A stretch of DNA of 64,000 nt, taken from IMG/VR virus record IMGVR_UViG_3300042935_001404; one strand, 5' to 3'. The notes under the pieces were generated by a model. The model was not told where the DNA came from. It saw only the letters and a list, made by a program, of their open reading frames with translations, and did not search any database. Positions 43,491-60,310 of the stretch are shown piece after piece. This stretch comes from a virus (taxonomy: Duplodnaviria > Caudoviricetes). Positions within the stretch are counted from its first letter, which is position 1. Each line of letters begins with the position of its first letter. The translations under genes were made by a program, and so were the position numbers.

Positions 43491-43519
43491 AAAGACAGAC
43501 ACCTTTTTAAGGGTGTCTG
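43491..43519 (-). terminator. Intrinsic terminator
   Basis: CAGACACC-loop-GGTGTCTG followed by TCTTTTT on the minus strand. Confidence 0.7.
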
Positions 43520-43574
43520 CCATAAAGCCCGGGCCGGAGCCAACCTACTCCCGAGAAAAAGGAGATGAAATGAA

Positions 43575-43676
43575 CTAACCAACTACCACTCGAAAACCCT
43601 GCTCACGCTGTTCGTCTGCTTCATAATCAGTATCCACGGCAAACAAAAACAACTCACCATCATAAATCTTGTACAT
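43575..43676 (-). CDS. Microprotein (33 aa) MYKIYDGELFLFAVDTDYEADEQREQGFRVVVG
   Basis: GGAG RBS 6 nt before ATG; manual translation. Confidence 0.6.
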   Translation of the reverse strand: MYKIYDGELFLFAVDTDYEADEQREQGFRVVVG

Positions 43677-43688
43677 TTGGCACTCCTG

Positions 43689-43874
43689 TTAATAAGTTTC
43701 TTTTATAAAATCGTATTGTTCCGCAGGCCATTTTGCCCGGAACTCTTCTGATTTGACATAGTCGTTGTAGGCCTTAGCATCAAAAAATACTTTGCGGAAC
43801 ACTGACGTAAACTCACCCTTGGGTGTTACTGTTAAGTAAACAGACTTGGCTTTTCCTGACATATCAATCTCCAA
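43689..43874 (-). CDS. Small hypothetical protein
   Basis: 61-aa ORF, GGAG RBS near the second Met. Confidence 0.65.
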   Translation of the reverse strand: MEIDMSGKAKSVYLTVTPKGEFTSVFRKVFFDAKAYNDYVKSEEFRAKWPAEQYDFIKETY

Positions 43875-43957
43875 ACGCTAAAATAATAAATGCATAAAGT
43901 AAAGACCACCCAAGGTGTCCTAGCATTAGCAACATTAGGACACCTATCCAAGCCATA

Positions 43958-44989: not shown

Positions 44990-45019
44990 AGTTGGCTCCT
45001 TTTTGTGCGTTAAAATTGT

Positions 45020-45048
45020 ATTATAGCAGATGTAGAATTAAGCGTCAA
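45020..45048 (-). promoter_or_regulatory. sigma70 early promoter
   Basis: TTGACG-17 bp-TATAAT. Confidence 0.85.
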
Positions 45049-45217
45049 CCGGGGCAAACATCTTGCTACCCGATTCCATGACTGCACGATATGCTTCCAT
45101 GGTTTTTTGTGTCTGTGCAAGTGGGCTTTTTTGGATAAACTGCATCATTTCTAAAAATCCCATACCCAAAAATTCTGCATCTTTTTGTATAGTTTTGATT
45201 GCTGTGGCTGTCTGCAT
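45038..45217 (-). CDS. Small hypothetical protein (59 aa)
   Basis: Manual translation MQTATAIKTIQKDAEFLGMGFLEMMQF...APVDA; GGAG RBS. Confidence 0.65.
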   Translation of the reverse strand: MQTATAIKTIQKDAEFLGMGFLEMMQFIQKSPLAQTQKTMEAYRAVMESGSKMFAPVDA

Positions 45218-45246
45218 TTTAGCTCCTTTTTGTTACTGTATGCTAT

Positions 45247-45275
45247 ATTATAGCAAAAGGGGGTTTATTGGTCAA
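45247..45275 (-). promoter_or_regulatory. sigma70 early promoter
   Basis: TTGACC-17 bp-TATAAT. Confidence 0.85.
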
Positions 45276-45310
45276 CCACTTGAATTGTGGCTTTTTACAA
45301 CAAAATCTGC

Positions 45311-45520
45311 TTATTTTTTAAGCAATTCGTACAGTCTGTTGTTGATTACATCCATCTCTGCCTGTTCTACATAAAAATCTGTAGTGGGATCGTAGTAGGC
45401 GCCTTCTTTGTTGTCATAATACAACACCTGTCCGGAGAAATTAAAAGGTCCTTCCAGGCCCGCACGGGTTCCGTATTTCTCACGCATCTGGTTCACGGTA
45501 TCTATAACTTTATAGCCCAT
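45311..45520 (-). CDS. Conserved small phage protein
   Basis: GLEGPF...LYYDNKEGAYYDPTTDFY; GGAG RBS. Confidence 0.7.
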   Translation of the reverse strand: MGYKVIDTVNQMREKYGTRAGLEGPFNFSGQVLYYDNKEGAYYDPTTDFYVEQAEMDVINNRLYELLKK

Positions 45521-45550
45521 CTAGAACTCCTTTTTACTTACTATGCCACT

Positions 45551-45579
45551 ATTATAGCAAATTGGGAATATTCGGTCAA
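45551..45579 (-). promoter_or_regulatory. sigma70 early promoter, conserved-spacer family
   Basis: TTGACC-gaatattcccaatttgc-TATAAT, identical to 11105-11133. Confidence 0.9.
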
Positions 45580-45583
45580 CCAT

Positions 45584-45613
45584 AAAAAAACCCCACATAC
45601 TGCAGGGTTTATT
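45584..45613 (-). terminator. Intrinsic terminator
   Basis: AAACCC-loop-GGGTTTTTTT on the minus strand after the 45632-46186 gene. Confidence 0.65.
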
Positions 45614-45631
45614 GTGAAAATACGTTATAAA

Positions 45632-46186
45632 TTACACAGGTGTCGGCGGGGCAACACTTGAAAACACAATTGTTGTGAATGCAAGCACTGATCCAGCACT
45701 CATATAGAGATATAAGTGTCCCTCTTCTTCTGGAAGCAGAACCCCATTTAGTACTTCTGTTGTTCGGTTATCGTAGGCCAGCTCTACTGTATTTCCGTAT
45801 CCAAACGTAGTTGAATTACGGATACGCCAACCACCTTTGGATTGTACATCTGCTTGTATTTCAGCAGGAGCAGTTTGCCAGGTACCTGCAGTAATGTACG
45901 CAAGTTCTTCCGGCGTTAATGCAGGATTAGAATTCCATGCATAATTGTATTTGAACATGCCAACATGTGCCACTCCAGAAGCACATGTTACCACCACTGG
46001 AAATTGAACATCTGTGCCGGCTGAATCATCAAATGTATATGAAAATTCGCACAAAAACCCATCAGGTTCGTCGATGCTGCCCTGGCTAAATGTTCCATTG
46101 AACACTTCAGTGCCATTCACTGTCACTGTGCCCGTTGACGGTAGAACACTAAGGTTTCCTTTTAATTTAAATAATCTTTGAGTCAT
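45632..46186 (-). CDS. Late beta-rich protein, possibly virion surface
   Basis: GATAAATA 46209-46216 plus GGAG RBS; own terminator. Confidence 0.55.
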   Translation of the reverse strand: MTQRLFKLKGNLSVLPSTGTVTVNGTEVFNGTFSQGSIDEPDGFLCEFSYTFDDSAGTDVQFPVVVTCASGVAHVGMFKYNYAWNSNPALTPEELAYITAGTWQTAPAEIQADVQSKGGWRIRNSTTFGYGNTVELAYDNRTTEVLNGVLLPEEEGHLYLYMSAGSVLAFTTIVFSSVAPPTPV

Positions 46187-46214
46187 TTGATGTATCTCCG
46201 GTTAGTTTTATTTA

Positions 46215-46937
46215 TCATTGCCAATGAGTTTGCACTGCCGGGTCTGAGATCTCGTGTGGTTTTGGACTGCCGTGAAATACCAAAATACTGGTGTTGTCAT
46301 CTACCACAGTTCCGGTGTTGGGAGCCCGATACTTGCGTTTTGAAAAATTAAAACCGCCATCCAAGCACTGCCAACGCCAACTTTTAACCCAGTCAGTGTT
46401 AAAAAATCTACGATTCCCAACAGGTATCAATGCCGAAATCAAGTCTTGATCACCTCGATATTTGCTGGTAAATTGGCCAATGTCTTGGCCAATTACTTCT
46501 TTCCACACATGCTGGTAATGTTCAGTATTCCACCACATCACACTGGTGTTTGACACTGTGCAAGTATTTTTCCATAGATACTTGAAATCTCTCACTGCCC
46601 AGAAATGTCGCTGTGGCAGTTGCCAAATCCAATCAATATTTTTTGTAATTACCATGTCCAAATCAAAGTACAATAGCGGACCCGAATGATGTTCTGTATT
46701 GAACAATTGCAGTTTATACCACCAGGATTTTTTAGGTCCTGCCAGCCCCCAATCAATCAAAGCATGTTTGATCATATGGTCTGGAACTGTTCTGTCTGTT
46801 TCTGTGTAAACGTGTAATCTTACTGGACGACTTAGATTCCTACACAACATACTATACAGTCGTTCAACATAGTCCCATGTGTATCCATCGCCGTGTATTA
46901 CGCAAGCACAGTCTAAGGGTTCAGTAGTAGGCATCAT
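46215..46937 (-). CDS. GT-A glycosyltransferase
   Basis: WWYKLQLF, LYFDLD (DxD), GDQD, VFHGSPKP; late-type GGTAAATA 46942-46949. Confidence 0.8.
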   Translation of the reverse strand: MMPTTEPLDCACVIHGDGYTWDYVERLYSMLCRNLSRPVRLHVYTETDRTVPDHMIKHALIDWGLAGPKKSWWYKLQLFNTEHHSGPLLYFDLDMVITKNIDWIWQLPQRHFWAVRDFKYLWKNTCTVSNTSVMWWNTEHYQHVWKEVIGQDIGQFTSKYRGDQDLISALIPVGNRRFFNTDWVKSWRWQCLDGGFNFSKRKYRAPNTGTVVDDNTSILVFHGSPKPHEISDPAVQTHWQ

Positions 46938-46974
46938 TTGATATTTACCGTTATATACACACATAAATATCTTT

Positions 46975-47730
46975 ATGAAAATTGTACTTGTAACCGGTGG
47001 GTTTGATCCCTGCCATTCTGGGCACCTTGCTTACTTCCAATCAGCAAAAAAACTAGGCGATCGACTGGTCGTTGGTCTTAACTCAGACCAGTGGCTCACT
47101 CGTAAAAAGGGACGACCGTTTATGCCCATGAGTGAGAGATTTGCATTGATCAGTGCCTTGAGCATAGTAGACGAAGTTGTAGTTTACAATGATGATGACA
47201 ACAGTAGTTGTGATGCAATTCAACTGGTCAAGCAACGCTATCCTGCTGCCAACATTGTGTTTGCCAATGGCGGTGACCGTACACAAGACAACATTCCAGA
47301 AATGATCTTCGATGACGTGGAGTTTGTGTTTGGTGTGGGTGGCGAAAACAAAATAAACTCCAGTTCGTGGATATTGGAAGAGTGGAAGAAGCCCAAGACG
47401 ACCCGTGCATGGGGCTATTATCGTGTACTACATGAAGTAGGATCTAACACCAAACTCAAAGAACTCACAGTGTCTGCCAAAACTTGTCTTAGCATGCAAC
47501 GACATGATCGGCGTGCGGAGTTTTGGTTTGTGGCCGAAGGCGAAGCCGCAGTGTATACCCTGGACAATTCTAGCGATCACGACCTAGTAGGACATTACGG
47601 AGTGCATGACTATATTTGGATCAAGAAAAATCAATGGCACATGTTGTGTAATGAAACTGATCAACCACTGAAATTAATTGAAATTCAGTTTGGCGACGAT
47701 TGTGTGGAAGAGGACATAGAACGTCGATGA
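46975..47730 (+). CDS. Cytidylyl/nucleotidyltransferase (RfaE/TagD-like) fused to a sugar-isomerase cupin
   Basis: TGGFDPCHSGH (HxGH), FANGGDR, NSSS; RAWGYY...LSMQRH..RAEFW cupin; CATAAATA 46962-46969. Confidence 0.85.
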   Translation: MKIVLVTGGFDPCHSGHLAYFQSAKKLGDRLVVGLNSDQWLTRKKGRPFMPMSERFALISALSIVDEVVVYNDDDNSSCDAIQLVKQRYPAANIVFANGGDRTQDNIPEMIFDDVEFVFGVGGENKINSSSWILEEWKKPKTTRAWGYYRVLHEVGSNTKLKELTVSAKTCLSMQRHDRRAEFWFVAEGEAAVYTLDNSSDHDLVGHYGVHDYIWIKKNQWHMLCNETDQPLKLIEIQFGDDCVEEDIERR

Positions 47731-48413
47731 AAGCCATACCAGTTTATGTTGGATACGATCCAAGAGAAGCCATTGCTTTTCACACCTGTGCCAATTCAAT
47801 CATACGGCATGCATCAAAGCCCGTGGCTATTATTCCTGTGGCCTTGAACTTGTTTCGAGACTACGAAGAAACGCACACAGATGGCAGCAATCACTTTATC
47901 TACACACGATTTCTTGTGCCGCACTTACAGGAATACACAGGATGGGCAATATTCATTGATGGCGACATGATTGTGCGAGATGACATTGTGAAACTATGGG
48001 AATTGCAAAACCCTTATAACGACGTTATGGTAGTCAAACATGACTACAAAACTCGGATGCCTGTAAAATATCTAGGAGCACGAAATGAAGACTATCCTCG
48101 AAAAAATTGGAGTAGTGTTATTCTGTGGAATTGTAATAGCTTTCCTAACAGGCGACTTACTCCTGAGTTCATTCAAAAATCCACAGGTAGTGAACTCCAC
48201 CGCTTCTCGTGGTTAGAAGACGAACGAATTGGCGAGTTGCCAAAAGAGTGGAACTGGTTGCCTGATGAATACGGCATTAATAAGGATGCCAAGCTGTTAC
48301 ACTACACGCTAGGCACACCTTGCTTTCAAGAGTTCGCTGACACGCCACAAGGTGATGAGTGGCATAGAGAACGTATTCTAACTGAATACTGCTTACAAAG
48401 GAACATACTATGA
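47727..48413 (+). CDS. GT8-like glycosyltransferase
   Basis: VGYDPRE, FIYTRFLVP, FIDGD (DxD), YPRKNWSS, LHYTLGTP. Confidence 0.82.
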   Translation: MKAIPVYVGYDPREAIAFHTCANSIIRHASKPVAIIPVALNLFRDYEETHTDGSNHFIYTRFLVPHLQEYTGWAIFIDGDMIVRDDIVKLWELQNPYNDVMVVKHDYKTRMPVKYLGARNEDYPRKNWSSVILWNCNSFPNRRLTPEFIQKSTGSELHRFSWLEDERIGELPKEWNWLPDEYGINKDAKLLHYTLGTPCFQEFADTPQGDEWHRERILTEYCLQRNIL

Positions 48414-49513
48414 TTTTACCAGTGGCCCTGGTGGACCGTTGGCCCAGTGACGAGTATAAAATACAACACGCAACAATTGAATCTGCACTCAAACACAGTG
48501 TTGCAGATCTATTGAAACTTCGTGCTGAAGTTGAACTGTTAAAACAACTTGAACACGAATGGGGGCTAAGTCCTATCCCTGAAGAATTGCTAACTAAAGA
48601 TATTAGAGGATTTATCAAGAGGAACGGTGGCGACTCAATGGGTCAAAGATTTATTGATTATGTTGTAAATCAAGATGCCCAATTTGATCGTTGTTTAAAA
48701 TTTACAGACTACCCGGCAATGGTTATGGCTGCATATCCCAGCAGTAAATTTATTGATAAAAATAGATTCCGCACCGAAATGGAAGAGATTGTCAAAGATC
48801 CTGTGCTGATACGCGGCATCAGTTCTGGTAAAATAGCCAAGATTGTGAGAGAACATGATCAAGACTATTACTTTATCGAAACAGGATATCTTGGCAATTA
48901 TCGATGTGACAACAATCAAACCGGCAGAAAAGTGTATCATCGCATTGTAAAAAATTCCATGCAACATTCAACTATCATGGATGTGCCCGATGACCGATGG
49001 CAACAACTGGTAAAATTCAATCCAAACTTGGAATACAAAGGCTGGAAGCGCACTGGATCAAAAATTCTAGTGGTGTTGCCCACTAATAAACCATTTCAAT
49101 ATTATGGACACAATCGTGAGAAATGGATTGAAAAAGTTGAACGCACTATTAAAAAACACAGTGACAGAGAGATTGTCTGGCGTGAAAAGGCCAGTCGTGG
49201 GGAACGTACAAATGCCACTATATACGATGCCTTAGATGATGACATTTATGCTCTGGTCACTTACAACAGTATTGCAACTGTGGAAGCAATACAGCACGGA
49301 ATTCCAGCCTTTGGACTGGCACCCACTGCGGCAGATCCGGTATGCAGTAATGATCTTTCACAAATTGAAAATCCCGTAATGCCCAATGAAGAAATTGTTT
49401 ACAGATGGTTATGCTCGATTGCTTACAGTCAATTTAGTCTAGATGAAATTTTAACAGGCCAAGCCTGGCAAATGGTATTAGAAAATGCACAACGCCCAAC
49501 CCTTGATTGTTAA
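48410..49513 (+). CDS. Capsule-synthesis (KpsS/KpsC-like) GT-B protein, paralog 1
   Basis: IETGYLG, YHRIVKN, LVTYNSIATVEAIQHGIPAF, WL..IAYSQFS..E. Confidence 0.6.
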   Translation: MILPVALVDRWPSDEYKIQHATIESALKHSVADLLKLRAEVELLKQLEHEWGLSPIPEELLTKDIRGFIKRNGGDSMGQRFIDYVVNQDAQFDRCLKFTDYPAMVMAAYPSSKFIDKNRFRTEMEEIVKDPVLIRGISSGKIAKIVREHDQDYYFIETGYLGNYRCDNNQTGRKVYHRIVKNSMQHSTIMDVPDDRWQQLVKFNPNLEYKGWKRTGSKILVVLPTNKPFQYYGHNREKWIEKVERTIKKHSDREIVWREKASRGERTNATIYDALDDDIYALVTYNSIATVEAIQHGIPAFGLAPTAADPVCSNDLSQIENPVMPNEEIVYRWLCSIAYSQFSLDEILTGQAWQMVLENAQRPTLDC

Positions 49514-50441
49514 AAGTTATCTAAGAAGTTTGCCCAGGCATATCAACGGCAACGAAAAAATCAATGCATTGACTTATTTTGCAGAGGGTGCAGCCAAGTG
49601 TGGCGATTCAGCATCAGTAACTGAGTCACAAACATACGAAACATGTGATGTTGGTGCCATTATTGGCAATGCGTTTGATGCAAATCCCAGCAAGGTCAGA
49701 CTGCCGCATTATCAAGTTCGCAAAATGGTAATGGATACACAACACAGTCTTCATCGTTACTGGTTAAGCATAGACAGCAACGTATTCATTTACAAAGATG
49801 CTGCCAATCCACACAAGTATCTACGCTACAGTTTTAATGGTGTGTTTCCTGCCACAGGCATATACTGTAACGAAACACCCGGTGAAGAAAACTGGAACAA
49901 CATGCGACGTGACTACAATATGGATCTAAAACCCTGGAGGTCCAGTGGCAATCACATATTGATCTGCTTGCAACGACCGCTGGGGTGGAGTATGCGTGGC
50001 GCGGATTTAATGAAGTGGCTTAAGAGAACATTAGGCAAGATTAGAGAACACAGTGATCGTCCAATCTTAATAAGATGGCATCCAGGTGACTGGAAGGCAT
50101 TTCCCAATTATAAATCCACGCTAGTTAAGTTTGGCGTTACAGTGAGCCCACAAAACCGGCACATAACCGAAGACTTGGTCAATTGCTGGGCACTGGTATG
50201 CCATAATTCAACTCCCAGTGCAGTGGCACCAATTGAAGGAATTCCAGCATTTATCACAGATGAGCCTGCATACAGCCAGGGCGGTGATATTGCTAACACT
50301 GACCTGAGTCAGATAGAAAATCCTCACATGCCTAACCGTGAGCAATGGATTAGGAAACTAGCACAATGTCACTGGAGTTTTGAAGATGTCAGATCAGGCC
50401 GTTGCTGGAGTCACATGCGCAACTGGGTCAAAGTCCCGTAA
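49485..50441 (+). CDS. Capsule-synthesis (KpsS/KpsC-like) GT-B protein, paralog 2
   Basis: IRWHPGD, LVCHNSTPSAVAPIEGIPAF, W...LAQCHWS.E. Confidence 0.6.
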   Translation: MHNAQPLIVKSYLRSLPRHINGNEKINALTYFAEGAAKCGDSASVTESQTYETCDVGAIIGNAFDANPSKVRLPHYQVRKMVMDTQHSLHRYWLSIDSNVFIYKDAANPHKYLRYSFNGVFPATGIYCNETPGEENWNNMRRDYNMDLKPWRSSGNHILICLQRPLGWSMRGADLMKWLKRTLGKIREHSDRPILIRWHPGDWKAFPNYKSTLVKFGVTVSPQNRHITEDLVNCWALVCHNSTPSAVAPIEGIPAFITDEPAYSQGGDIANTDLSQIENPHMPNREQWIRKLAQCHWSFEDVRSGRCWSHMRNWVKVP

Positions 50442-51224
50442 TTCATTTAACTGTGTGAGATAATCAGGAATGGCAAAATCAAATTCATTTCTAGTGTCTA
50501 CCAAGATCTTGTTTACATCTTTGGGGCCGCTGGTCCTGACCACATTCTTTCCTAGATTGTAAACTTCGTTGATCAAGCACAATAACTCATATTTGTTAAT
50601 GTTTACTGAGTTGTTGACCACATGATATATGCCAGCAACACTGGGGTTGCGTACATATCGATCAATACATTTGGCCAACTGCAATGTGGTGATCCCATTC
50701 CACCAGGCATTGTCCCAACCAGGTATTGCAGTTTCAGGATTTCTTCTAACCCAATCAAGTAATCCAGTACCAGATTTGAGTTCGGGACCGATAATGCTCA
50801 TACGAAATGTAACGTCTTTGCTGTTGTCAACTTCGCCTAGGCTTTTACTGCGACCATACACATTTGTTTCGGTGTGCGTGTGTTTTTCTTTGTAGTGACC
50901 CACAGCACCATCAAACACACAATCAGTGCTTAGATGAATCAGTCGAGTGTGAGTGTCTTTTAATCGGTATTCGATGTAGTGTGGCAACCAGGAATTGATT
51001 ATGCTGGCACGGTCGGGACGTTGCAGGCACGGCTGTACCAATAGACCAATACAGTTTACAACAAAATCAGTGTTGAGTTGATCAAAAAATTCTGCAACCA
51101 TAGCGGGATTTTCAACATCTAATCGGGTACGGTACACTGCATCAACTTCGTGCCCTTGCTGACGAAGATAACTGACCACAACATGTCCAGCCATGCCGTT
51201 GGAACCTAGTACTGTGATTTTCAT
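50394..51224 (-). CDS. RmlD-like NAD(P)H-dependent 4-keto sugar reductase (WbvR/QnlA-type)
   Basis: GSNGMAG, VNCIG, HLSTDCVFDG, YGRSK (YxxxK). Confidence 0.88.
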   Translation of the reverse strand: MKITVLGSNGMAGHVVVSYLRQQGHEVDAVYRTRLDVENPAMVAEFFDQLNTDFVVNCIGLLVQPCLQRPDRASIINSWLPHYIEYRLKDTHTRLIHLSTDCVFDGAVGHYKEKHTHTETNVYGRSKSLGEVDNSKDVTFRMSIIGPELKSGTGLLDWVRRNPETAIPGWDNAWWNGITTLQLAKCIDRYVRNPSVAGIYHVVNNSVNINKYELLCLINEVYNLGKNVVRTSGPKDVNKILVDTRNEFDFAIPDYLTQLNELRDFDPVAHVTPATA

Positions 51225-52201
51225 AAGAATCCTCCCTTGACCAACATGTCTTTGATTTGATCATCGTTCATTAATACTGTTTGAGAACTGAACTCAGAGT
51301 GGGGAAATGCTGGTAACTGTTTGTATTTGTTCTTAAGTTCTGCAGAACACTTGGTAGGAAGTATCACATAGTAATTTTCATCAAAGCAACGACTCAGCAC
51401 AGCTTCGTGTTTGCTGATCAACATTTCGTCTAGTTTCTCCCCGGGCTTGCTGCCAATTTCTTTTATGTTCACAGTGCCATACTTGTGCATGAGCACACGG
51501 GCCACATCTCGAATGTAACAAGCCGGCATGTTCATAACAAATGTTTCACCACCGATGCTGGTTTCTGCGGCTTTGAACAACAACATGATGGCTTCCTCTA
51601 GCGTCAAGAAGAACCGAGTCATTTGCAAATCAGTAATGGTAATAGGACCACCTGCTTTGATCTGTTCAATAAAGTACGGAATCACGCTGCCGTTGGAACC
51701 CATGACATTGCCGCCACGAATGCAAACAAACTTTGTGTGTGTGCTTAGATCATTACCTTGTATGATTAACTTTTCACCTACACTTTTGGTCATGCCATAC
51801 AGGTTCAACGGCTCAACGGCTTTGTCGGTACTGACATCAATTACTTTGCTGACATGATTTTCTACAGCGGCGTTGACAATGTTGGTGGTTCCTGTGATGT
51901 TTGTTTTGATAGCTTCCTGTGGGTGATCTTCGCAGATGGGCACATGTTTAAGTGCGGCCAGATGAAATATAACGTCAACGCCCTTGGTTGCAAAACGAAC
52001 AGCATCATAATCTCGAACGTCTCCTACTACAAACTTCAATCTAGAGTCATGAAACTGTCGTTGCATCAACACTTGTTGAAGTTCGCCACGGCTAAAACAT
52101 ATAATTTCTGTGGGATTATAATTTGCCAACAACATACGTATTAACGTTTGTCCCCAACTGCCGGTGGCACCCGATACAAATATTCTTTTTCCGTTAAACA
52201 T
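51221..52201 (-). CDS. UDP-GlcNAc 4,6-dehydratase/epimerase (CapE/WbjB/FnlA/PseB family)
   Basis: GATGSWG, GDVRD, HLAALKHVP, STDKAVEP.NLYGMTK, RGGNVMGSNGSV, MTRF, PGEKLDE. Confidence 0.92.
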   Translation of the reverse strand: MFNGKRIFVSGATGSWGQTLIRMLLANYNPTEIICFSRGELQQVLMQRQFHDSRLKFVVGDVRDYDAVRFATKGVDVIFHLAALKHVPICEDHPQEAIKTNITGTTNIVNAAVENHVSKVIDVSTDKAVEPLNLYGMTKSVGEKLIIQGNDLSTHTKFVCIRGGNVMGSNGSVIPYFIEQIKAGGPITITDLQMTRFFLTLEEAIMLLFKAAETSIGGETFVMNMPACYIRDVARVLMHKYGTVNIKEIGSKPGEKLDEMLISKHEAVLSRCFDENYYVILPTKCSAELKNKYKQLPAFPHSEFSSQTVLMNDDQIKDMLVKGGFL

Positions 52202-53270
52202 GATTTCCTAATAAAATGTTTACCACTGTGTCACTAACGTTGGTTCTAGCATATTCAGCAGGTACTGTCCATGCACGATCAACCTGTTTCATAGATTGGT
52301 AACCAGCAACAATATTATCAACTGCTAGACCAGTTACAATGTTTGATCCACACCAAACAGTTTCTGGGCGTTCAGTAGTGGCACGTATAGTTATAGTGGG
52401 TTTATAGAACAAACACATTTCTTCTTGTACAGTTCCTGAATCACTGATGGCCATGTAACTATTCTTTTCTAACTTTACAAAATCAAAAAACCCCATTGGT
52501 TCAGTTATTTTTATACAGTCGCTTACTGATATATCTAATTCGCGCAAACGCTGACGTGTTCGTGGATGACAACTAAACACAATTGGGCGATCTTGTGCTA
52601 TGATTTCCATGGCACTAAAAATACTAGCCAATCTCTCCGGACTATCTACGTTCTCTGCTCTGTGTGAGGTGGCGATAATGTACTGGTTAGATTTTAATTT
52701 TAATTTTTCTAAAATATTGCTCTCATCAATTTGATCACAGTAGTAATCTAATACTTCTCTAATGGGATTGCCAGTTACAAACACACGATTGTTTTGTGCA
52801 CCTTCTCGTAACAAATTTTGTCTACTGAGTTCAGTATAAGGCAAATTGATAGTGCTAATACTGTCTATTAATCTACGATTCTTTTCTTCTGGTACTGACA
52901 TATCGTAACAACGATTGCCGGCTTCCATGTGATACACAGGAACTCCCATGCGTTCACAAACTATAGCACTCAATCCTGAATTGGTATCACCCAACACTAA
53001 CACCGCATCAGGTTGAAATTCTGTAATGTACTGCTCTACACCAATCATAGTGGCAGCCAACTGCTGTCCAATTGTACCACGACTGTTTAGTACACAATCG
53101 GGTTGTCGCAATCCCAACTGATCAAAGAATATATCATTGAGTGTGGCATCGTAATTTTGCCCAGTATGTAATACTCTATGTTCACTGACTTGATCTAGCT
53201 TGGGTATAATTCTAGCCAAGCGAATTATTTCCGGGCGTGTTCCTAAGATGGTTAATATCTTACGCTTCAT
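52194..53270 (-). CDS. Non-hydrolysing UDP-HexNAc 2-epimerase (CapG/WbjD/WbvD subtype)
   Basis: GTRPEIIRL, HTGQNYD, GDTNS, HMEAGNRC, VPEE.NR, LPYTE.SR, SDSGTVQEE. Confidence 0.92.
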   Translation of the reverse strand: MKRKILTILGTRPEIIRLARIIPKLDQVSEHRVLHTGQNYDATLNDIFFDQLGLRQPDCVLNSRGTIGQQLAATMIGVEQYITEFQPDAVLVLGDTNSGLSAIVCERMGVPVYHMEAGNRCYDMSVPEEKNRRLIDSISTINLPYTELSRQNLLREGAQNNRVFVTGNPIREVLDYYCDQIDESNILEKLKLKSNQYIIATSHRAENVDSPERLASIFSAMEIIAQDRPIVFSCHPRTRQRLRELDISVSDCIKITEPMGFFDFVKLEKNSYMAISDSGTVQEEMCLFYKPTITIRATTERPETVWCGSNIVTGLAVDNIVAGYQSMKQVDRAWTVPAEYARTNVSDTVVNILLGNHV

Positions 53271-53787
53271 AATACCCTACATAATATTTCTCTAGGCTGG
53301 GCAGTTTAACCTCGACCCAGCCTGCAAAGTCATCATGTGTCCATGAACTTTTGTGTATATCAAATTGATTACCATGACTCCAAATTCGTTCGTTTTCGAT
53401 ATTGTGTGTATTGTCTGTCCAAATTTCAGGTAGTGGGGTAAGTAAAAATATTTTTTTATTGACTATTTTCTTGCAATCTTCCAATAGTCGAACGCCTGCA
53501 TCTTTGTTTAAGTGTTCGATAAAATCTATCATTAAAATATAATCCCAACGCTCGGTGGTAATTTCAAAGATAGGAGTAGTCTCAACATTGGCCACAATGT
53601 CTGGTTCAACCCAATCCCATGCATCAATTGTTAACACACGACACTGTTGTTCTAGCAACGGCGATGAGTAGGCTTTGGGGCCGCACCCTATATCTAATAC
53701 TGTGCTGCCAGTGGCTACACTTTCATTAATAAACTGTGACAATAAATCATTGCGACTGGCTCTTTTTCCTTTGATTTTAAATTTCAT
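53260..53787 (-). CDS. Class I SAM-dependent methyltransferase
   Basis: VLDIGCG, IDA, DFIEHL. Confidence 0.82.
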   Translation of the reverse strand: MKFKIKGKRASRNDLLSQFINESVATGSTVLDIGCGPKAYSSPLLEQQCRVLTIDAWDWVEPDIVANVETTPIFEITTERWDYILMIDFIEHLNKDAGVRLLEDCKKIVNKKIFLLTPLPEIWTDNTHNIENERIWSHGNQFDIHKSSWTHDDFAGWVEVKLPSLEKYYVGYYEA

Positions 53788-54545
53788 TGTATACTTTCTT
53801 TATTTGGTGCATGTATTGTTCCATCAACAGTGATGTTAAAATACAAATCTTTATTATTTTGATCAGGCTCAATGTTGTCAGGATGCCCGTAACTCTTATG
53901 GTGATATTGATGTATAACCATTGGTGTTGCTACAAATTCAAGATTGCACACTTGTTTGATTCTATATAGTATTTCTGCATCGTCCCAGTTATGTCCTGTT
54001 GCATATCTTTCATCAAATCCGTTGACTTTGATTAGATTATTTCTGGTAATGGCATTGCAAAAGTGAAATGCCACTGGACGCTCAATTTCGTGATTATACC
54101 AACGTGCTTTTTTTGATGTTGACACTGTGGGAATTGATCCTTGCTGATGCAATACTGTAACATCTTGTTTAGTACATGCCCAGCAATGAAAACTAAGATA
54201 TGTTTCATCAGTAAGATTCTTAGCAACATAATTCAACACATCTCCCATATGGCAACATTCAGGGTTTTGTATCACAATCATATCTCCGCGACTGGCACGC
54301 AGTCCTACATTATATGGAATACATGGATTACAATAGTCTTTTTTTGTTACTTTCTCTTTCATACGAATAATATTAAACTGTAATTGTGGAAACTCATTGG
54401 GTATACCATCTAAACTATTATCAGCATCACTGAAGTCATCTACAATGACCACTTCTACATTTTTGTACGCACTATTTGCAATAGTCTGCAATGTGAATTT
54501 TAGTTGAGGTAACCTATTATAATAGGCCATCACTATTGATATCAT
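53784..54545 (-). CDS. GT2 glycosyltransferase
   Basis: ISIVMAYYNR, VIVDDFS, YNVGL, GFDERY, DAE. Confidence 0.88.
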   Translation of the reverse strand: MISIVMAYYNRLPQLKFTLQTIANSAYKNVEVVIVDDFSDADNSLDGIPNEFPQLQFNIIRMKEKVTKKDYCNPCIPYNVGLRASRGDMIVIQNPECCHMGDVLNYVAKNLTDETYLSFHCWACTKQDVTVLHQQGSIPTVSTSKKARWYNHEIERPVAFHFCNAITRNNLIKVNGFDERYATGHNWDDAEILYRIKQVCNLEFVATPMVIHQYHHKSYGHPDNIEPDQNNKDLYFNITVDGTIHAPNKESIQ

Positions 54546-55141
54546 ATAAACCTTATGTGCGACGTGGCGTATTTTGCCCGTTGATTGATTATTTCCACAA
54601 TTTCAAAATTAGACTCTACCAATGGTGTTCTTTCCTTGGCAAAGATTCGTAGATCCATTACAACAACAGTATTGGCGTGACTGTGCTTGAGTATCAACTC
54701 ACGATATGTGCTTGCTGGATAATGAAACCCGCAACTGACCCAACTAGTAATGACATCAAACTTAATATCCTCAGAGATATTGATATTATTACAGTCTACC
54801 AGATGATAATTTTGTGTGTTTAATTCATCTAGTTTGTTTTGTAAAAAATCCAACTTGTAATAAAATGCAAAATTTTTAGAATCAGTGGTGTAACGTGCCT
54901 GTTGTTGTGTTCGGGCATCTTGAGCATTATCGTCGAAATCGCCATCTAGTAGATACAATTCAGTGCCGTACTTTTTATTAAACAAACGACTTTCCCAAGC
55001 AAGTCCGCATCCAATGTCTAATATTTTTTTAGGAGGCGTTCCTAGATAGGTATCTAATAGATCAAAGTTTTCTTGTTTATGTTGCTGATACACATCAGTG
55101 AACCATTCGTCATTGATCCAATCTTTTTGATACAATATCAT
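54542..55141 (-). CDS. Class I SAM-dependent methyltransferase
   Basis: ILDIGCGLAW, LLDGD, FDVITSWVSCGFHYP. Confidence 0.78.
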   Translation of the reverse strand: MILYQKDWINDEWFTDVYQQHKQENFDLLDTYLGTPPKKILDIGCGLAWESRLFNKKYGTELYLLDGDFDDNAQDARTQQQARYTTDSKNFAFYYKLDFLQNKLDELNTQNYHLVDCNNINISEDIKFDVITSWVSCGFHYPASTYRELILKHSHANTVVVMDLRIFAKERTPLVESNFEIVEIINQRAKYATSHIRFI

Positions 55142-55926
55142 TGGTACTTTCTCTGTTCTTGTTTGAATACATCAAGTTCTTTGCGTTTGCCTTTGGCAGA
55201 CCATATGGCGCTTTCAGTCCGCATGGCCCAGTCAATATAACTCATGGGTAACAGACCTTTTTGATATTTTGGCACCAGTTGATCTAGTAGAACTTGATCT
55301 AAAAACCAATATAGATCGTGTTTACCGATACTGGCACGTAAACTGTTTGCGTACTCTTGTAAAAATTCATGTGCACCAGCAGTACCATTGAACAACACAG
55401 CACCGGCCAAGTGGGTGCCATCTTTGGGTTTTTCGTACAGATAAAAATCCTTAGTGCCCAATTGATCATTGAATTGTCCGCGCACTAGCCCGTCAACATC
55501 AATACTCAAGCATCGTTGTCCTGGTTGTAGTAATTCAGCCAGTCTGACAAATCTAGTACAGGCATAGTAAGTTTGATGAATCAGTATTGATAGGTCTTGG
55601 CGGCCACGTGTTTGTCCTTTTTTAAACATTTGTCTCTGTCGATCGTTTTCAAATTGGGTTCTGGTCATCCAGTAGTCAGTTGTATGTTGAAACTCATTCT
55701 CACTGGGCTGTTCATAAGTGCAAGTTACACCTGTGCGGCTTTGACAAAAATCAATCTGATCGGGCCTAGGGTTGTATATGTGTATGTGTACTCCGTATTC
55801 TGGAGTATTGGCCAGTATACTGTTGATCAACGGCCGGGCATGCAGGTCAAAATACACTGAGTCTGCGGCAGCATAGATAAAGAATTTATTTTGATTTAAC
55901 GTTCCGTTAAGTTGGGGCAATATCAT
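55138..55926 (-). CDS. Nucleotide-diphospho-sugar transferase (GT-A)
   Basis: YACTRF, SIDVDG (DxD), WFLDQ, IWSAKG; late-type ACTAAATA 55934-55941. Confidence 0.7.
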   Translation of the reverse strand: MILPQLNGTLNQNKFFIYAAADSVYFDLHARPLINSILANTPEYGVHIHIYNPRPDQIDFCQSRTGVTCTYEQPSENEFQHTTDYWMTRTQFENDRQRQMFKKGQTRGRQDLSILIHQTYYACTRFVRLAELLQPGQRCLSIDVDGLVRGQFNDQLGTKDFYLYEKPKDGTHLAGAVLFNGTAGAHEFLQEYANSLRASIGKHDLYWFLDQVLLDQLVPKYQKGLLPMSYIDWAMRTESAIWSAKGKRKELDVFKQEQRKYQ

Positions 55927-55970
55927 AGTCAGATATTTAGTGAGGGAAAACACAGCCTATAACTAATACT

Positions 55971-56804
55971 ATGAGAGTAAGTATTTTTGATCAGTATGGT
56001 GCGCTTAATAGTCCGCCGGTATTTGCGGCTGTACGTGCAGGGCTTGACAGTCTTGGCATCAAGCACAACAACATGGACAGTTCAGCAGATGTTGCTGTTA
56101 TCTGGAGCCAACTATGGCACGGACGAATGAAGCACAATCAAGGCGTATGGGGCGCATTCCGTAATAGCAATCGTCCTGTCGTTGTAGTTGAAGTGGGCAT
56201 GCTACGTCGTGGCGGCACTTGGAAATTGGGTGTTAACGGAACTGGTAACAATGCATACTATGGTGACGAGTTGATTCCAGGCCGGGCGGCGCAGTTGAGA
56301 CTAGAAACCCAACCCTGGTCCAATGCTGGTTACAACATTGTGATTGCCGCACAACGATCAGACAGTGAACAGTGGGCAGGACAGCCGCCCACTGTAGCTT
56401 GGTTAACCGAAACTGCTAACACCATTAAAAAATACACAGACAGACCTATTGTTATACGTCCGCATCCTAGACAGCGTATCAGTAATATTCCTGGTTGTGT
56501 TATTGAGATGCCGCGGCCCATCCAAGGAACATATGATAGTTTTGATTATGATCGATGTTTGTCAACAGCATGGGCTGTGGTCAATCACAACAGTGGTCCG
56601 GGCTCACTGGCTGTATTAAACGGAGTTCCAGCATTTGTACACGCTAGTAGTTTGGCAGCACCTGTTGGCAATACAGATTTATCCGCAATCAACAATCCGT
56701 CAAGGCCAGACCGAACTGCATGGCTAGAGCGACTGGCACACACAGAATGGTACACAGAGGAAATTGCCTCGGGCCTGCCGCTCAAACGTTTATTGTTGAC
56801 CTAA
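55971..56804 (+). CDS. Capsule-synthesis (KpsS/KpsC-like) GT-B protein, paralog 3
   Basis: VEVGML, IRPHPR, VVNHNSGPGSLAVLNGVPAF, WLERLAHTEW..EE. Confidence 0.62.
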   Translation: MRVSIFDQYGALNSPPVFAAVRAGLDSLGIKHNNMDSSADVAVIWSQLWHGRMKHNQGVWGAFRNSNRPVVVVEVGMLRRGGTWKLGVNGTGNNAYYGDELIPGRAAQLRLETQPWSNAGYNIVIAAQRSDSEQWAGQPPTVAWLTETANTIKKYTDRPIVIRPHPRQRISNIPGCVIEMPRPIQGTYDSFDYDRCLSTAWAVVNHNSGPGSLAVLNGVPAFVHASSLAAPVGNTDLSAINNPSRPDRTAWLERLAHTEWYTEEIASGLPLKRLLLT

Positions 56805-57548
56805 CCAAGACAAACTCTTGTCAATCCAGGCCAGTATAAGATCTTGTTGTCTTACATGCCCGTAGCGATTTATACTTCCTACCGCAGTTTCCGGCAGTAA
56901 GTTTTTATCTGCCAACTCATACCATGTAGTGGTTCTTGGATCCATTGGAGCATGTTCACTCTTATAAGCAATCACATGTATAAATTCGTCGTCTGGGTGT
57001 TTTAAAAAGAACCCTGAATTACAATCCCAGCCATTGACGGCCAGCATGTGCATTAAACTCACCACAGTGTGATGATAATAACATCCATTTGGTTGCACAA
57101 ATGCCAGTTGACGTATATCCATGTTGGTAGTTTGCGGAACTGCCATGATCAACATGCCGCCATCCTCGGCAATGGTGTTCCATTTTGCCAATGTCGACAA
57201 TGGATTGATACAGTATTGAAATGCATCGTGGCACCATAGCACATCAAATTTTGACTTGCCAGGCAGATTATCTGTATTTTCAAAATCTATTTTTTGATAC
57301 ACAATGTTTGAATATTTTTTAACCACAGCAGGTGTAGCACCTGTGTCTATGCCTGTGCAACGAATATTCAGAGGTATTGGGGCGTCATCTCGAGTTGTTC
57401 TAGTCGCCCACCATTCTAGGTCTTGTCCTGTGCCACATCCCAAATCAACCAGTGTGCCAATGCTTTCCATAAAGTCATCATACTCAAACAGTGTGTTGAG
57501 TGTTTGTAAACTGTGTGCATGACTTTCGTCATCGTTTCTAAATGTCAT
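56790..57548 (-). CDS. Class I SAM-dependent methyltransferase
   Basis: LVDLGCGTG, FDVLWCHDAFQY, GGML; coupled to uvsY. Confidence 0.82.
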   Translation of the reverse strand: MTFRNDDESHAHSLQTLNTLFEYDDFMESIGTLVDLGCGTGQDLEWWATRTTRDDAPIPLNIRCTGIDTGATPAVVKKYSNIVYQKIDFENTDNLPGKSKFDVLWCHDAFQYCINPLSTLAKWNTIAEDGGMLIMAVPQTTNMDIRQLAFVQPNGCYYHHTVVSLMHMLAVNGWDCNSGFFLKHPDDEFIHVIAYKSEHAPMDPRTTTWYELADKNLLPETAVGSINRYGHVRQQDLILAWIDKSLSWLGQQ

Positions 57549-57997
57549 AACTGTATATCTTCCATGCCGGCTGCTCGCAGTCTAACCACATGTCCCAACA
57601 TGAAGTTTTTACTTTCCATTGCTTTCATAATGCCCAAAAATCGATTGCGTAACAGTGCAACTTCGTTGATAATGGTTTCAAAATCAATAACTTCATCTTC
57701 ACCATCCACATACTTTTCAGCATCTCGACTGGTCAGCGCACGAGCATAGCCTTCTAAATACTTTTGAAAATGCCGTCGTCGAATCTTACGCAGTTGTATG
57801 TTAAGGAAGTTCAGCACTGCTTCAATCTCTTGTAGTTGATTAAAGCGATGCTCGGTCATTCCCGGAAGTGCTGTGATATTTCGTTCAACCAGGCCACCAA
57901 TGGCACAGTCACGCCGTGCAGATACAAGTTCATTTTCGTAATGAGCAATAAAGTCTGGAATGGCGCTGAGATCAGCAACAACGCGGTTATACCACAT
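57545..57997 (-). CDS. uvsY: Recombination mediator UvsY
   Basis: FNQLQEIEA, KYLEGY.RALTSRDAEKYVDGE, LRAAGMED. Confidence 0.88.
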   Translation of the reverse strand: MWYNRVVADLSAIPDFIAHYENELVSARRDCAIGGLVERNITALPGMTEHRFNQLQEIEAVLNFLNIQLRKIRRRHFQKYLEGYARALTSRDAEKYVDGEDEVIDFETIINEVALLRNRFLGIMKAMESKNFMLGHVVRLRAAGMEDIQL

Positions 57998-58263
57998 TAG
58001 TTTTCCCAGTCATCGTCTTGGTCGTGGTCTTCTTCCTCGGGTTCTTCGTCTTCGACGTAATCTTTATCATTGTCAAGATACGCAGTTAAAGCTGCCTTAA
58101 CATCGCGATCTCCTGTAAAGGCATCTCGAATATCCTCTGCATCACTGTCATTGTCCATTAAAATTTGTACTAGAGTTTCTGCCGCTTCGGCACGATCTAC
58201 TGTGTTTATGTAGCGTTTAAGTTCTCCCCAAATTTCTTTGGTTAATTTTACATCAATGGTCAT
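57997..58263 (-). CDS. Conserved acidic protein upstream of uvsY
   Basis: 88 aa with acidic tail, TAATG coupling. Confidence 0.7.
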   Translation of the reverse strand: MTIDVKLTKEIWGELKRYINTVDRAEAAETLVQILMDNDSDAEDIRDAFTGDRDVKAALTAYLDNDKDYVEDEEPEEEDHDQDDDWEN

Positions 58264-58585
58264 TTTGTTTCCTTTTATCTAATTTTTCCGTATAAAGATC
58301 AGATGCACATGCAGTACAGCTTTCTTTCCTGCATATTGTATACTCGGTTAAAAACTTAAAATTTTCATCAAACAGATTTCCTAAATTGTCGTTCTTACAG
58401 GTACCTGCGTAGACTGAAAAATCAACATCTATATAGATACTTGTAACTCCAGCGTTACAAAGCCAACCTTTCCAATGGTGCAAATCTTTATCATACAATT
58501 GATTGGCAGATATTTTAACCTCGCTGCCGTCTTTCAATTCTACTATAGCACTGCAATGAATATCCTCAGTTAGTGTAGTATTCAT
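58253..58585 (-). CDS. Stand-alone SPASM/twitch-like Fe-S domain
   Basis: CNAG..IYID....YAGTC...LGN...C...C..C; ATGA overlap with the radical SAM core gene. Confidence 0.7.
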   Translation of the reverse strand: MNTTLTEDIHCSAIVELKDGSEVKISANQLYDKDLHHWKGWLCNAGVTSIYIDVDFSVYAGTCKNDNLGNLFDENFKFLTEYTICRKESCTACASDLYTEKLDKRKQNDH

Positions 58586-59232
58586 GAAAAGTTCATTTGG
58601 TTAGTAATCTTTATCGGGAATTGATTCTTTCCTTGTCTATAATCCTTGATTGGATGTGTATAGCTAACAATTCCGTGTTTTTCTAAAAATGTTTTGTATT
58701 GCTCATTACGAGCTCGATGCCATGATTCATCCATGATATTGACTGATACTAGACATTTATGACTTTGTGCAAACTGGTGTAGATTTAATACTAGATTAAA
58801 AAACTTTTTTTCTTTCATAAATTCACTATGTGTAGAAAATGTAATCCAATCACAATAATCCATCATTTCCTTATAGTATGCTAGACTAGCTGTGCCATTG
58901 GTAGTGACTCCAACATTCCCTAGGTCGTGCGCAAAGCACTCATGCAACCATTTTAAAAAAGGAAGAAAATTTTTATTTAAAGTAAGTTCACCCCCTACAA
59001 ATGCCAAATTATATTTGATATTTTTCCTAGGGCTAGCTGATATAATTCGATTCCACGCCGCTTGCAATTTCTCTAATGAATAATCTTTAGATGTTTTATC
59101 ATGCCATTGATCTGGACAATAACTACAATCAAAATTACACCTTGTTCCAACTAGCCAATGGATTGTAATACCCGGTGCATACTCACGTATCCGAACAATG
59201 GGATTACTGTCAGTTACTACAATCGATTGCAT
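58582..59232 (-). CDS. Radical SAM core domain (no C-terminal SPASM)
   Basis: GTRCNFDCSYC, FVGGELT, TTNGT, FSTHSE. Confidence 0.88.
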   Translation of the reverse strand: MQSIVVTDSNPIVRIREYAPGITIHWLVGTRCNFDCSYCPDQWHDKTSKDYSLEKLQAAWNRIISASPRKNIKYNLAFVGGELTLNKNFLPFLKWLHECFAHDLGNVGVTTNGTASLAYYKEMMDYCDWITFSTHSEFMKEKKFFNLVLNLHQFAQSHKCLVSVNIMDESWHRARNEQYKTFLEKHGIVSYTHPIKDYRQGKNQFPIKITNQMNFS

Positions 59233-60299
59233 TATTCGTTGATGCTTTCGTCGATAATTTCGTCTACTACTCTGATATCTTTCTGGTTGGCAAAATCTGC
59301 CATAAGTTTGTCTAAACAGCCGTTTTCATTTGCTTCCCATTTTTTACGGAACTGTTTGATCACTTCACCATCACTTGTGACAAATACCAAACTGTTGCCT
59401 TCTTTCTTGAGAATGTTTTTCTTCTCTGCCAGGTCAACCAATCCCGAATGTGGACTCATGCCAGTTGAGTAAGGAATCTTAACTTGCATACCTTCAAACG
59501 GTTTAGCATAGCGTGTTTTCATTACTTTACAGCCGGCACGAATACCGTTGACTTCTGATACTTTGTTGCCATCTTCGTCTTCTTTCAATTTCATTTTCTT
59601 CATGGCAACAACAATACTCGATGCATAGATAAATCCTTGACCACCGGAGATCTTGTCATCGGGATCGAACATGTCTTGGCTTGCGTATGTATGATTAGTA
59701 GCAACCAATCCAACATTGTGACTACCAAACATATTAACACAGTTACGAACCAGTGCTGTCAGTGCCTTGGGCTTGCGGCCCATGTCACCTTTCATGTCAC
59801 CTGCTTCAAACTGGTTAACGTCTGTGGGAGTCAACAACATGCCCAACGAATCAATCACCCACAGAACCTTCATGCGTTCTTCATCAGGAAGTGCTTTGTA
59901 ATCAATCATGAATGTGGAAATTGCTTTGGCCACGTCGTCGATCATGCTCATATTAAGTTTAAGCAACTTTGCCGGATCAGTGTCAACACCCAGTGCGTGT
60001 AGCCACGATTCGTCTAGTGCATTTTCTGTGTCAACAAGAATAACAAAGATGCCTTGTTCTTGTGCGTTTTTTACAATGTTACCAGAGCAGATGTAACTTT
60101 TACCTGCGCCAGATTCACCGGCAAACACAGTTACCTTGCCTAGCGGAATACCTTTGTTGAAGTCTCCACTAATAAGATAGTTTAAGGCATAGTTGCCTGT
60201 GCCAATCCAGTCAGTTGGATCGTTAAATCCAATACTCAGGCCTTGGATGCTTTTGGTAATGTCCTTGCGGAACTTTGATATGTCAAATGGTTTTGCCAT
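59232..60299 (-). CDS. uvsX: RecA-like recombinase UvsX
   Basis: AGESGAGKS, VDTENA, IDSLGML, TNHTY, SGGQG..YASS. Confidence 0.95.
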   Translation of the reverse strand: MAKPFDISKFRKDITKSIQGLSIGFNDPTDWIGTGNYALNYLISGDFNKGIPLGKVTVFAGESGAGKSYICSGNIVKNAQEQGIFVILVDTENALDESWLHALGVDTDPAKLLKLNMSMIDDVAKAISTFMIDYKALPDEERMKVLWVIDSLGMLLTPTDVNQFEAGDMKGDMGRKPKALTALVRNCVNMFGSHNVGLVATNHTYASQDMFDPDDKISGGQGFIYASSIVVAMKKMKLKEDEDGNKVSEVNGIRAGCKVMKTRYAKPFEGMQVKIPYSTGMSPHSGLVDLAEKKNILKKEGNSLVFVTSDGEVIKQFRKKWEANENGCLDKLMADFANQKDIRVVDEIIDESINE

Positions 60300-60310
60300 G
60301 TTGTGCCTTT

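Follow-up and report, generated by a model that had tools for sequence, protein, structure and literature searches.

Six consecutive minus-strand genes at positions 50394–55141 of the viral DNA IMGVR_UViG_3300042935_001404 (Caudoviricetes; the whole stretch of 64,000 nucleotides is called the window below) encode a candidate pathway for a rare 6-deoxy-L-amino sugar, a glycosyltransferase and two putative methyltransferases. They are RED (50394–51224, 276 aa; RmlD_sub_bind, 89.8 bits), DEH (51221–52201, 326 aa; Polysacc_synt_2, 306.7 bits), EPI (52194–53270, 358 aa; Epimerase_2, 303 bits), MT175 (53260–53787, 175 aa; Methyltransf_23, 28.3 bits, barely over the cut-off), GT2 (53784–54545, 253 aa; Glycos_transf_2, 44.7 bits) and MT199 (54542–55141, 199 aa; Methyltransf_23, 24.3 bits, under the cut-off). 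The family scores are based on Pfam and NCBIfam profile scans. As described in a first-pass annotation of this DNA, the six open reading frames (ORFs) are chained by overlapping start and stop codons; the overlaps, from RED through MT199, are 4, 8, 11, 4 and 4 nt, with junctions of the ATGA type confirmed in the letters of the chain. The gene u271 (55138–55953, minus strand) is joined to MT199 by a further 4-nt overlap, and hence the chain consists of seven genes. At the opposite end, the 48-nt overlap of RED with the convergent gene u318 (49485–50441, plus strand) is real as well.

The gene that would decide the pathway assignment is the reductase. RED belongs to the STDC family (QnlA/WbvR/Mg535-like) of short 4-reductases in the short-chain dehydrogenase/reductase (SDR) superfamily, and is probably also a 3-epimerase. 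The residues GxxGxxG, T100, Y123 and K127 are present. The assignment of RED to RmlD itself was rejected, as the score with the rmlD equivalog TIGR01214 is 85.9 bits, below the cut-off of 224, and the protein has STDCVF where RmlD has STDYVF; the best RmlD structure in PDB matches with 51 bits. The motif STDC[VI]F replaces STDYVF in the whole family, which comprises 613 representative clusters at E<1e-30. Cys102 of this motif, situated two residues past the catalytic Ser/Thr, is kept in all 48 phage homologues, 52 of the 60 cellular ones and 120 of 134 representative ones. In GDP-fucose synthase this position is occupied by Cys109, which serves in epimerisation. The conserved Cys of Mg535, the Megavirus reductase, has been equated with the 3-epimerisation Cys of the same enzyme (PMC9614988).

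As stand-ins for Vibrio WbvB, WbvR and WbvD and for Mg535 we used the Escherichia coli O3 and O163 sequences and the published Megavirus data. RED is 33% identical to the O3 reductase (137 bits) and 31% identical to that of O163 (116 bits), and all three share STDC and YGxSK. The O3 cluster (L142, NZ_CP147109.1) contains a FnlA-like dehydratase and a 289-aa "dTDP-4-dehydrorhamnose reductase family protein", with no 2-epimerase; O3 is the sole E. coli O antigen containing N-acetyl-L-rhamnosamine (L-RhaNAc) (PMC7685785). In the O163 cluster (L143, NZ_CP122588.1) the dehydratase, reductase and 2-epimerase genes are consecutive. In both clusters the neighbourhood of the RED-type reductase also includes a "WbuC family cupin fold metalloprotein". 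RED matches neither Staphylococcus aureus CapF nor the WbcJ model NF047837. A tblastn search of the window with S. aureus CapF yielded nothing at E≤1, and homologues of CapF, WbuC, RmlC and DegT were not found in the 64 kb. Hence the earlier description of a short RmlD-like reductase lacking a cupin holds. The cupin encoded nearby (46975–47730) was considered as a substitute CapF/WbuC-type 3-epimerase and rejected, having no similarity to E. coli WbuC.

The DEH gene had been annotated as a CapE/WbjB-type dehydratase, and this had to be revised. In the motif TDKAVEPLNLYGMTK DEH has Tyr at the position where CapE, FnlA and the E. coli O3 and O163 dehydratases have Met. The active site (...NLYGMTK) carries this Tyr as in FlaA1/PseB, whereas Acinetobacter baumannii FnlA, CapE and the O3 and O163 enzymes are of the Met type (NAMG). 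Mg534 of Megavirus features Tyr140-xxx-Lys144 (PMC9614988). DEH remains below the cut-offs of both relevant equivalogs, scoring 322.9 bits with PseB (TIGR03589, cut-off 407.75) and 247.9 bits with FnlA (TIGR04130, cut-off 730). Its matches in PDB are FlaA1 (250 bits), FnlA (240), CapE (217) and Mg534 (148). In an IQ-TREE tree DEH groups with the Tyr-type cellular dehydratases, apart from all Met-type ones (support 99). The inverting dehydratase of an L-RhaNAc/N-acetyl-L-quinovosamine (L-QuiNAc) route is thus present, in the Tyr variant seen in Mg534 and PseB.

By its sequence, EPI is a non-hydrolysing 2-epimerase of the CapG/FnlC/WbvD clade, and it adjoins DEH and RED with an 8-nt overlap. The closest PDB match is CapG (318.6 bits), followed by the Rickettsia bellii WbvD homologue 4hwg (269.8 bits), while ordinary WecB proteins score about 130. 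The wecB model is matched above its cut-off (259 bits), and the NeuC model merely with 75 bits. The catalytic residues D95, E116, E128/129 and H203 are invariant. All three previously noted signatures, HTGQNYD, HMEAGNRC and LPYTELSR, are found in EPI and are common to S. aureus CapG. The identity to CapG and to the O163 epimerase is 42–43% each.

We favour, with moderate confidence, a reading in which these three enzymes turn UDP-N-acetylglucosamine (UDP-GlcNAc) into L-RhaNAc and then L-QuiNAc, both as UDP sugars. Our confidence is considerably higher for the generic statement that UDP-GlcNAc is converted to a UDP-2-acetamido-2,6-dideoxy-L-hexose. The same route had been proposed in the first-pass annotation; its architecture (an inverting dehydratase, a short reductase, an epimerase of the CapG clade) is retained, and the dehydratase type is not.

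The closest functional analogue is the mg534–mg536 cluster of Megavirus chilensis, the sole experimental precedent for a Tyr-type dehydratase acting with a short reductase. UDP-L-RhaNAc has been made experimentally with Mg534 and the 270-aa Mg535, the latter performing 3-epimerisation and 4-reduction, and the fibrils contain L-RhaNAc, 4-O-methyl-L-RhaNAc and L-QuiNAc (PMC9614988). Both systems are encoded by viruses and combine a Tyr-type inverting dehydratase, an RmlD-type reductase of about 270 aa with a conserved Cys, a CapG/WbvD-like 2-epimerase (Mg536 in Megavirus) and clustered glycosyltransferases; O-methyl groups occur on part of the Megavirus glycan. However, Megavirus is a giant virus of eukaryotes, DEH is far from Mg534 (148 bits, compared to 250 for PseB), no methyltransferase has been identified in the Megavirus cluster while the phage has two putative ones, and the phage genes, unlike those of Megavirus, seem to derive from cellular EPI-DEH-RED operons.

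The same enzyme classes are adjacent in WbvB/WbvR/WbvD of Vibrio cholerae O37 (equivalent to FnlA/QnlA/QnlB), in the E. coli O163 triad and in the O3 pair, and the E. coli reductases share with RED the STDC[VI]F and YGxSK motifs at 31–33% identity. In contrast to DEH (NLYG), the bacterial dehydratases are of the Met type (NAMG). The gene order is RED-DEH-EPI or DEH-RED-EPI in most of the bacterial loci that we found and EPI-DEH-RED in the phage. Moreover, the bacterial clusters include Wzx and Wzy and serve a lipid-linked O antigen, whereas the phage island has no membrane protein. S. aureus CapE/CapF/CapG (FnlA/FnlB/FnlC, making UDP-N-acetyl-L-fucosamine, UDP-L-FucNAc) shares the dehydratase family, and CapG is the best solved relative of EPI. 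However, a CapF-type fusion of SDR and cupin (about 370 aa) is absent from the window, and the phage EPI falls outside the CapG/FnlC clade (support 100). PseB/FlaA1 gives the top model and PDB scores for DEH and has the same TDK...YGxTK active site, but DEH is below the equivalog cut-off, no PseC, PseH or PseI partners were found, and DEH is accompanied by a reductase and a 2-epimerase.

Homologues of RED in metagenomes form more than 100 clusters at 66–95% identity, on contigs of up to 331 kb. We fetched 51 loci of relatives for comparison. Of these, 42 extend far enough to show the site of DEH and RED, and every one has both genes there, at 71–93% identity. DEH, RED, u318, its neighbour u367, a GT8 gene and a cytidylyltransferase-cupin fusion keep the same position, flanked by a DEAD-box helicase and a RecA-like gene, in each contig long enough to cover it. 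The overlap of RED with the convergent gene had been seen as the mark of an insert; it is kept in the relatives, with 48 nt in L009, 42 in L001, 8 in L003 and 11 in L038, and hence is not an insertion scar.

The closest relative is L009. Its DNA is 93.2% identical to the window over 43452–52201 and 93.7% over 55135–60301 (blastn), whereas the stretch 52204–55135 between these blocks has about 68% identity (67.8% from 52204) or no match. The breakpoints coincide with gene junctions. The left one (52201–52204) is at the EPI stop and DEH start, and the right one (55135–55141) at the u271 stop and MT199 start. The swappable unit is therefore EPI-MT175-GT2-MT199, four genes and not six. These four genes have a G+C content (GC) of 0.35–0.385, and of 0.26–0.34 at third codon positions (GC3), compared to a GC of 0.42–0.43 in DEH, RED and u271. 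The nearest copies of the module are in L021, L023 and L003, phages whose backbone DNA is just 72–77% identical to the window; the identity there is 84–89% for EPI, 85–93% for MT175 and 90–92% for GT2. In L009 the place is taken by an alternative module with a different GT2, a Gly_transf_sug glycosyltransferase, diverged versions of MT175 and EPI and a different methyltransferase. The EPI of L027 is of the window type but its MT175 and glycosyltransferase are of the L009 type, and hence breakpoints also occur within the module.

The epimerase is missing in 13 of the 30 relatives with enough upstream sequence; these have GT2, GT25 and GT7C-like genes and a methyltransferase upstream of DEH. A deep clade (L028–L038, L041–L044, L047 and L051; RED 56–63% identical) has no 2-epimerase, and carries upstream of DEH a Methyltransf_24-like gene of 186 aa together with GT2, GT25 and GT7C-like genes. 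Phages lacking the epimerase are predicted to end at the RED product. The comparison of relatives suggested in the first-pass annotation thus gave a divided answer, with DEH and RED always present and EPI often absent. The idea that glycan chemistry is swapped as a module was correct as to the exchange itself, in which only EPI, MT175, GT2 and MT199 take part.

To look for cellular relatives, we scanned one genome per prokaryote species with the epimerase alignment and inspected the best 80 of more than 600 matches. Among these 80 loci, a RED-type reductase is present at 60, mostly beside the dehydratase, and a CapF-type one at seven. The dehydratase is of the Met type in 42 of the triads; the Tyr type together with the phage gene order EPI-DEH-RED is seen in five to seven, from Cytobacillus kochii, Metabacillus mangrovi, two Paenibacillus, and metagenome-assembled genomes (MAGs) of Promethearchaeum and Patescibacteria. 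The Tyr-type triads are the closest for all three genes, with identities of 49–55% for EPI, 50–58% for DEH and 33–40% for RED. The triad dehydratases score about 300–326 bits on the PseB model. In quick IQ-TREE runs of EPI, DEH and RED the phage proteins form one clade per tree. The EPI clade (support 100) has the Tyr-type group as its sister (94) and stands apart from both the CapG/FnlC clade (100) and the Met-type clade; the RED clade has support 100. In the EPI and DEH trees the phage clade stands beside the Tyr-type operons of Bacillaceae, Paenibacillaceae and the Patescibacteria and Promethearchaeum MAGs. Hence a single, joint acquisition of the trio from a cellular EPI-DEH-RED operon is most likely.

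Two of the cellular loci (L130 and L132, from Pseudomonadota, e.g. Ancylobacter rudongensis) combine a single FnlA-like dehydratase and a single CapG-like epimerase with two reductases, one of the RED type and the other of the CapF type, which suggests a dual output of L-FucNAc and L-QuiNAc/L-RhaNAc from one cluster.

MT175 is by family an S-adenosylmethionine (SAM)-dependent methyltransferase, probably acting on sugar oxygens; it has the SAM motif I VLDIGCG, and among relatives the gene co-travels with EPI. MT199 may be a second SAM-dependent methyltransferase. This call is weak, and rests on the intact motif I ILDIGCG with a sub-threshold Methyltransf_23 score. In relatives, MT199 and GT2 are fused in one ORF (L003:6020–7441; 452–473 aa), a methyltransferase forms the N-terminal part of a fusion protein with DEH (L001:8415–10004, 529 aa), and in the alternative module of L009 the other methyltransferase is directly upstream of DEH. 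The fusions support the view that the methyltransferases act in the same pathway as the sugar enzymes. GT2 is predicted to be a soluble family-2 glycosyltransferase, and its closest Atlas clusters are viral GT2 proteins. No membrane-spanning segments were found in any island protein, and the island encodes no Wzx, Wzy or polyprenol-phosphate transferase. Hence the acceptor is probably soluble, rather than a host envelope polymer.

The u271 gene, belonging to the conserved backbone, is modelled as a retaining glycosyltransferase of the GT-A/GT8-like fold. The AlphaFold model has a mean predicted local distance difference test score (pLDDT) of 89.5, and the top Foldseek matches are GlyE, glycogenin, UGGT, LgtC and WbbM (E from 7e-8 to 1e-6). 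The DxD motif (D152-V-D154) is invariant, and u271 is 97% identical in L009.

The convergent u318 seems to be a GT-B-like protein with a KpsC/WbbB-like fold. The model has pLDDT 83.9, and its top Foldseek matches are the KpsC, WbbB and KrkA transferases of 3-deoxy-D-manno-oct-2-ulosonic acid (Kdo), at E 1e-6 and a template-modelling (TM) score of about 0.5. The β-Kdo transferases of the KpsS/KpsC type (GT107) have an HP motif and a QxxxD nucleophile. In u318 H199-P200 is invariant, and Q163, on inspection of the sequence by eye, has Gly at +4, not Asp. No Pfam family, Capsule_synth included, matches u318 at E≤0.01. Hence the label "KpsS-like" given to this gene is justified at the level of fold, where KpsC and WbbB are the best PDB matches, but not by Pfam. 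Profile searches of PDB sequences with the u318 and u271 families returned only noise (polyubiquitin; WbbM at E 0.05). Two paralogues of u318, u367 (48410–49513) and the gene at 55971–56804, both on the plus strand, are 27–34% identical over the C-terminal 150 or so residues, and none of the three proteins matches Pfam. Judging by the one that was modelled, they may form an undescribed GT-B-like family in phages.

The context genes conserved with DEH and RED at 46975–48413 (plus strand) are the cytidylyltransferase-cupin fusion and the adjoining GT8, both kept in most relatives. The fusion (46975–47730, plus strand, 251 aa) scores 55.7 bits with CTP_transf_like (PF01467) and 65.4 bits with the phosphomannose isomerase-type cupin MannoseP_isomer, and the GT8 scores 30.9 bits with Glyco_transf_8. 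Between the island and the RecA-like gene lies a radical-SAM protein gene (58582–59232, minus strand), of 216 aa in the window and L009 and of 388–435 aa in other relatives. On the other side, a 278-aa ORF at 42619–43455 (minus strand; GC 0.329, GC3 0.29), with no Pfam family, is missing in the 93–97% identical L009, where the flanks are joined directly. It resembles a recent indel or a mobile gene.

The window belongs to a freshwater jumbo phage, whose genes here include those for a ribonucleotide reductase, an ATP-dependent ligase, a DnaB-like helicase (48% identity to the counterpart in Pseudomonas phage PA5oct) and proteins resembling RecA/UvsX and gp32. The CheckV completeness of the relatives' contigs implies a genome of about 350 kb. 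In 20 metagenome runs of lake water or freshwater, drawn from 20 studies, the cassette is present at a fraction of at least 0.91 of its sampled words; 15 of the runs are a possible source of the window DNA itself.

Under the reading we favour, the cassette would comprise two evolutionary units in one operon. The first one, DEH and RED, is fixed across the phage family. DEH would dehydrate UDP-GlcNAc at C4/C6 with inversion of C5, and RED would epimerise C3 and reduce C4, yielding UDP-L-RhaNAc. In the second unit, EPI-MT175-GT2-MT199, exchanged among phages at gene boundaries, EPI would 2-epimerise part of the pool to UDP-L-QuiNAc. GT2 and the neighbouring GT8-like and KpsC-like transferases would then place the sugar onto a soluble cytoplasmic acceptor, most probably a virion protein, and MT175 and MT199 would O-methylate the glycan after transfer.

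Several points weigh against this reading. The activities of the trio are predicted from sequence alone, and the stereochemistry at C4 is not readable from it; the model scoring DEH highest is PseB, and Mg534 is only a distant relative (148 bits); EPI is no closer to the O163 epimerase than to CapG, an enzyme of L-FucNAc synthesis; the comparison with Vibrio WbvR and Mg535 is indirect, through proxies; the methyltransferase assignment of MT199 is sub-threshold; the glycan acceptor is one that we infer; and we found no report of a biochemically characterised member of the Tyr-type cellular EPI-DEH-RED subfamily. It is unlikely, with an appreciable chance all the same, that the same enzyme classes make another sugar, with RED acting on the opposite C4 face or with no C3 epimerisation, so that the products would be UDP-N-acetyl-L-pneumosamine (UDP-L-PneNAc) and UDP-L-FucNAc, or the N-acetylated 6-deoxy-L-altrosamine and -idosamine (6-deoxy-L-AltNAc/IdoNAc) and their 2-epimers. 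The kinship of EPI with CapG and the uncharacterised triad subfamily, whose stereochemistry does not follow from sequence, are compatible with that. However, the known L-FucNAc routes need the two-domain CapF/FnlB/WbjC reductase, which was not found in the window, and the RED family is tied to L-RhaNAc in E. coli O3 and, by the literature, in Megavirus and Vibrio. A further alternative takes DEH for a PseB of a nonulosonic-acid (pseudaminic-type) pathway, with activation by the cytidylyltransferase-like protein and transfer by the KpsC/WbbB-like ones. The PseB score (323 bits), the PseB-type Tyr, the adjacent Kdo-transferase-like folds with the HP motif and the CTP_transf_like domain agree with it, but we consider it very unlikely: the score is under the cut-off of 407.75, and the closest cellular homologues of DEH, scoring much the same on this model, belong to EPI-DEH-RED triads. 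Further, tblastn with three E. coli DegT proteins found no DegT-type aminotransferase in the 64-kb window, no acetyltransferase or NeuB-type synthase is seen among about 35 scanned ORFs (most of 40–62 kb and ten larger ones elsewhere), and RED and EPI have no role in the pseudaminic route.

If the pathway is as favoured, the glycan could still be built on phage DNA, as a base hypermodification, and not on protein. The neighbours of the island are genes for replication and recombination (helicase, RecA/UvsX-like, gp32-like, radical SAM), all its proteins are soluble, and DNA hypermodification by phage glycosyltransferases has precedents (Pyle et al. 2024, cited in PMC12619734). On the other hand, no thymidylate synthase (ThyA)-like hydroxymethylase was found in the relatives' contigs of 188 and 210 kb (53–60% complete) or, more generally, in the relatives' contigs searched (25–60% complete). 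Three of the best fold matches of u271 (GlyE, glycogenin and UGGT) glycosylate proteins, and the giant-virus precedent is virion glycosylation. We hold a DNA acceptor to be improbable. As to the origin of the locus, the first-pass annotation had all six genes arriving as a single recent insert, and the tight overlaps within the chain and with the convergent neighbour, as well as the GC reduced over 52–56 kb, fit this description. However, DEH and RED are universal at this locus in the relatives, which by the criterion of that annotation itself refutes an insertion of these two genes. In addition, the convergent overlap is conserved, RED and DEH still lie within the 93% identity to L009, which falls only over 52204–55135, and the low GC is limited to the four genes of the module. 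A six-gene insert can hence be dismissed almost entirely.

The pathway is of a known type in a new kind of host. GenBank contains no cultured phage with the trio, megablast of the cassette against GenBank phages gave no match, and the literature searched has no phage-encoded L-QuiNAc/L-RhaNAc route. The 635-kb uncultured huge phage LR745206.1 in GenBank has DEH (33%) and RED (35%) homologues at 430154–431104 and 436014–436805, separated by about 5 kb, and gave no match to a CapG-type epimerase; this may be an independent acquisition. The "moraphage" paper (PMC12619734) deals with Bacteroidota-associated phages and leaves sugar-nucleotide genes unmentioned, and we saw no link to this lineage, though no sequences were compared.

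Tentatively, as a picture that is possible but on balance doubtful in its entirety, we propose that a widespread family of freshwater jumbo phages of about 350 kb builds an O-methylated L-RhaNAc/L-QuiNAc glycan on virion proteins in the cytoplasm of the host, with no lipid carrier, and varies it from strain to strain by swapping, precisely at gene boundaries, a module of epimerase, methyltransferase and glycosyltransferase genes. Megavirinae have fibril glycans that differ by clade; this would be a phage counterpart, obtained independently from cellular EPI-DEH-RED operons. If the chemistry is true, a bacteriophage makes its own rare bacterial-type 6-deoxy-L-amino sugar, and such a virus-made sugar has so far been documented only in giant viruses of amoebae; the soluble enzymes would then serve for making UDP-L-RhaNAc and UDP-L-QuiNAc. 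The locus also gives access to the Tyr-type EPI-DEH-RED subfamily, uncharacterised in cells too. The fixed DEH-RED core with its shuffled module of epimerase, methyltransferases and glycosyltransferase is a natural experiment in the variation of viral surface glycans.

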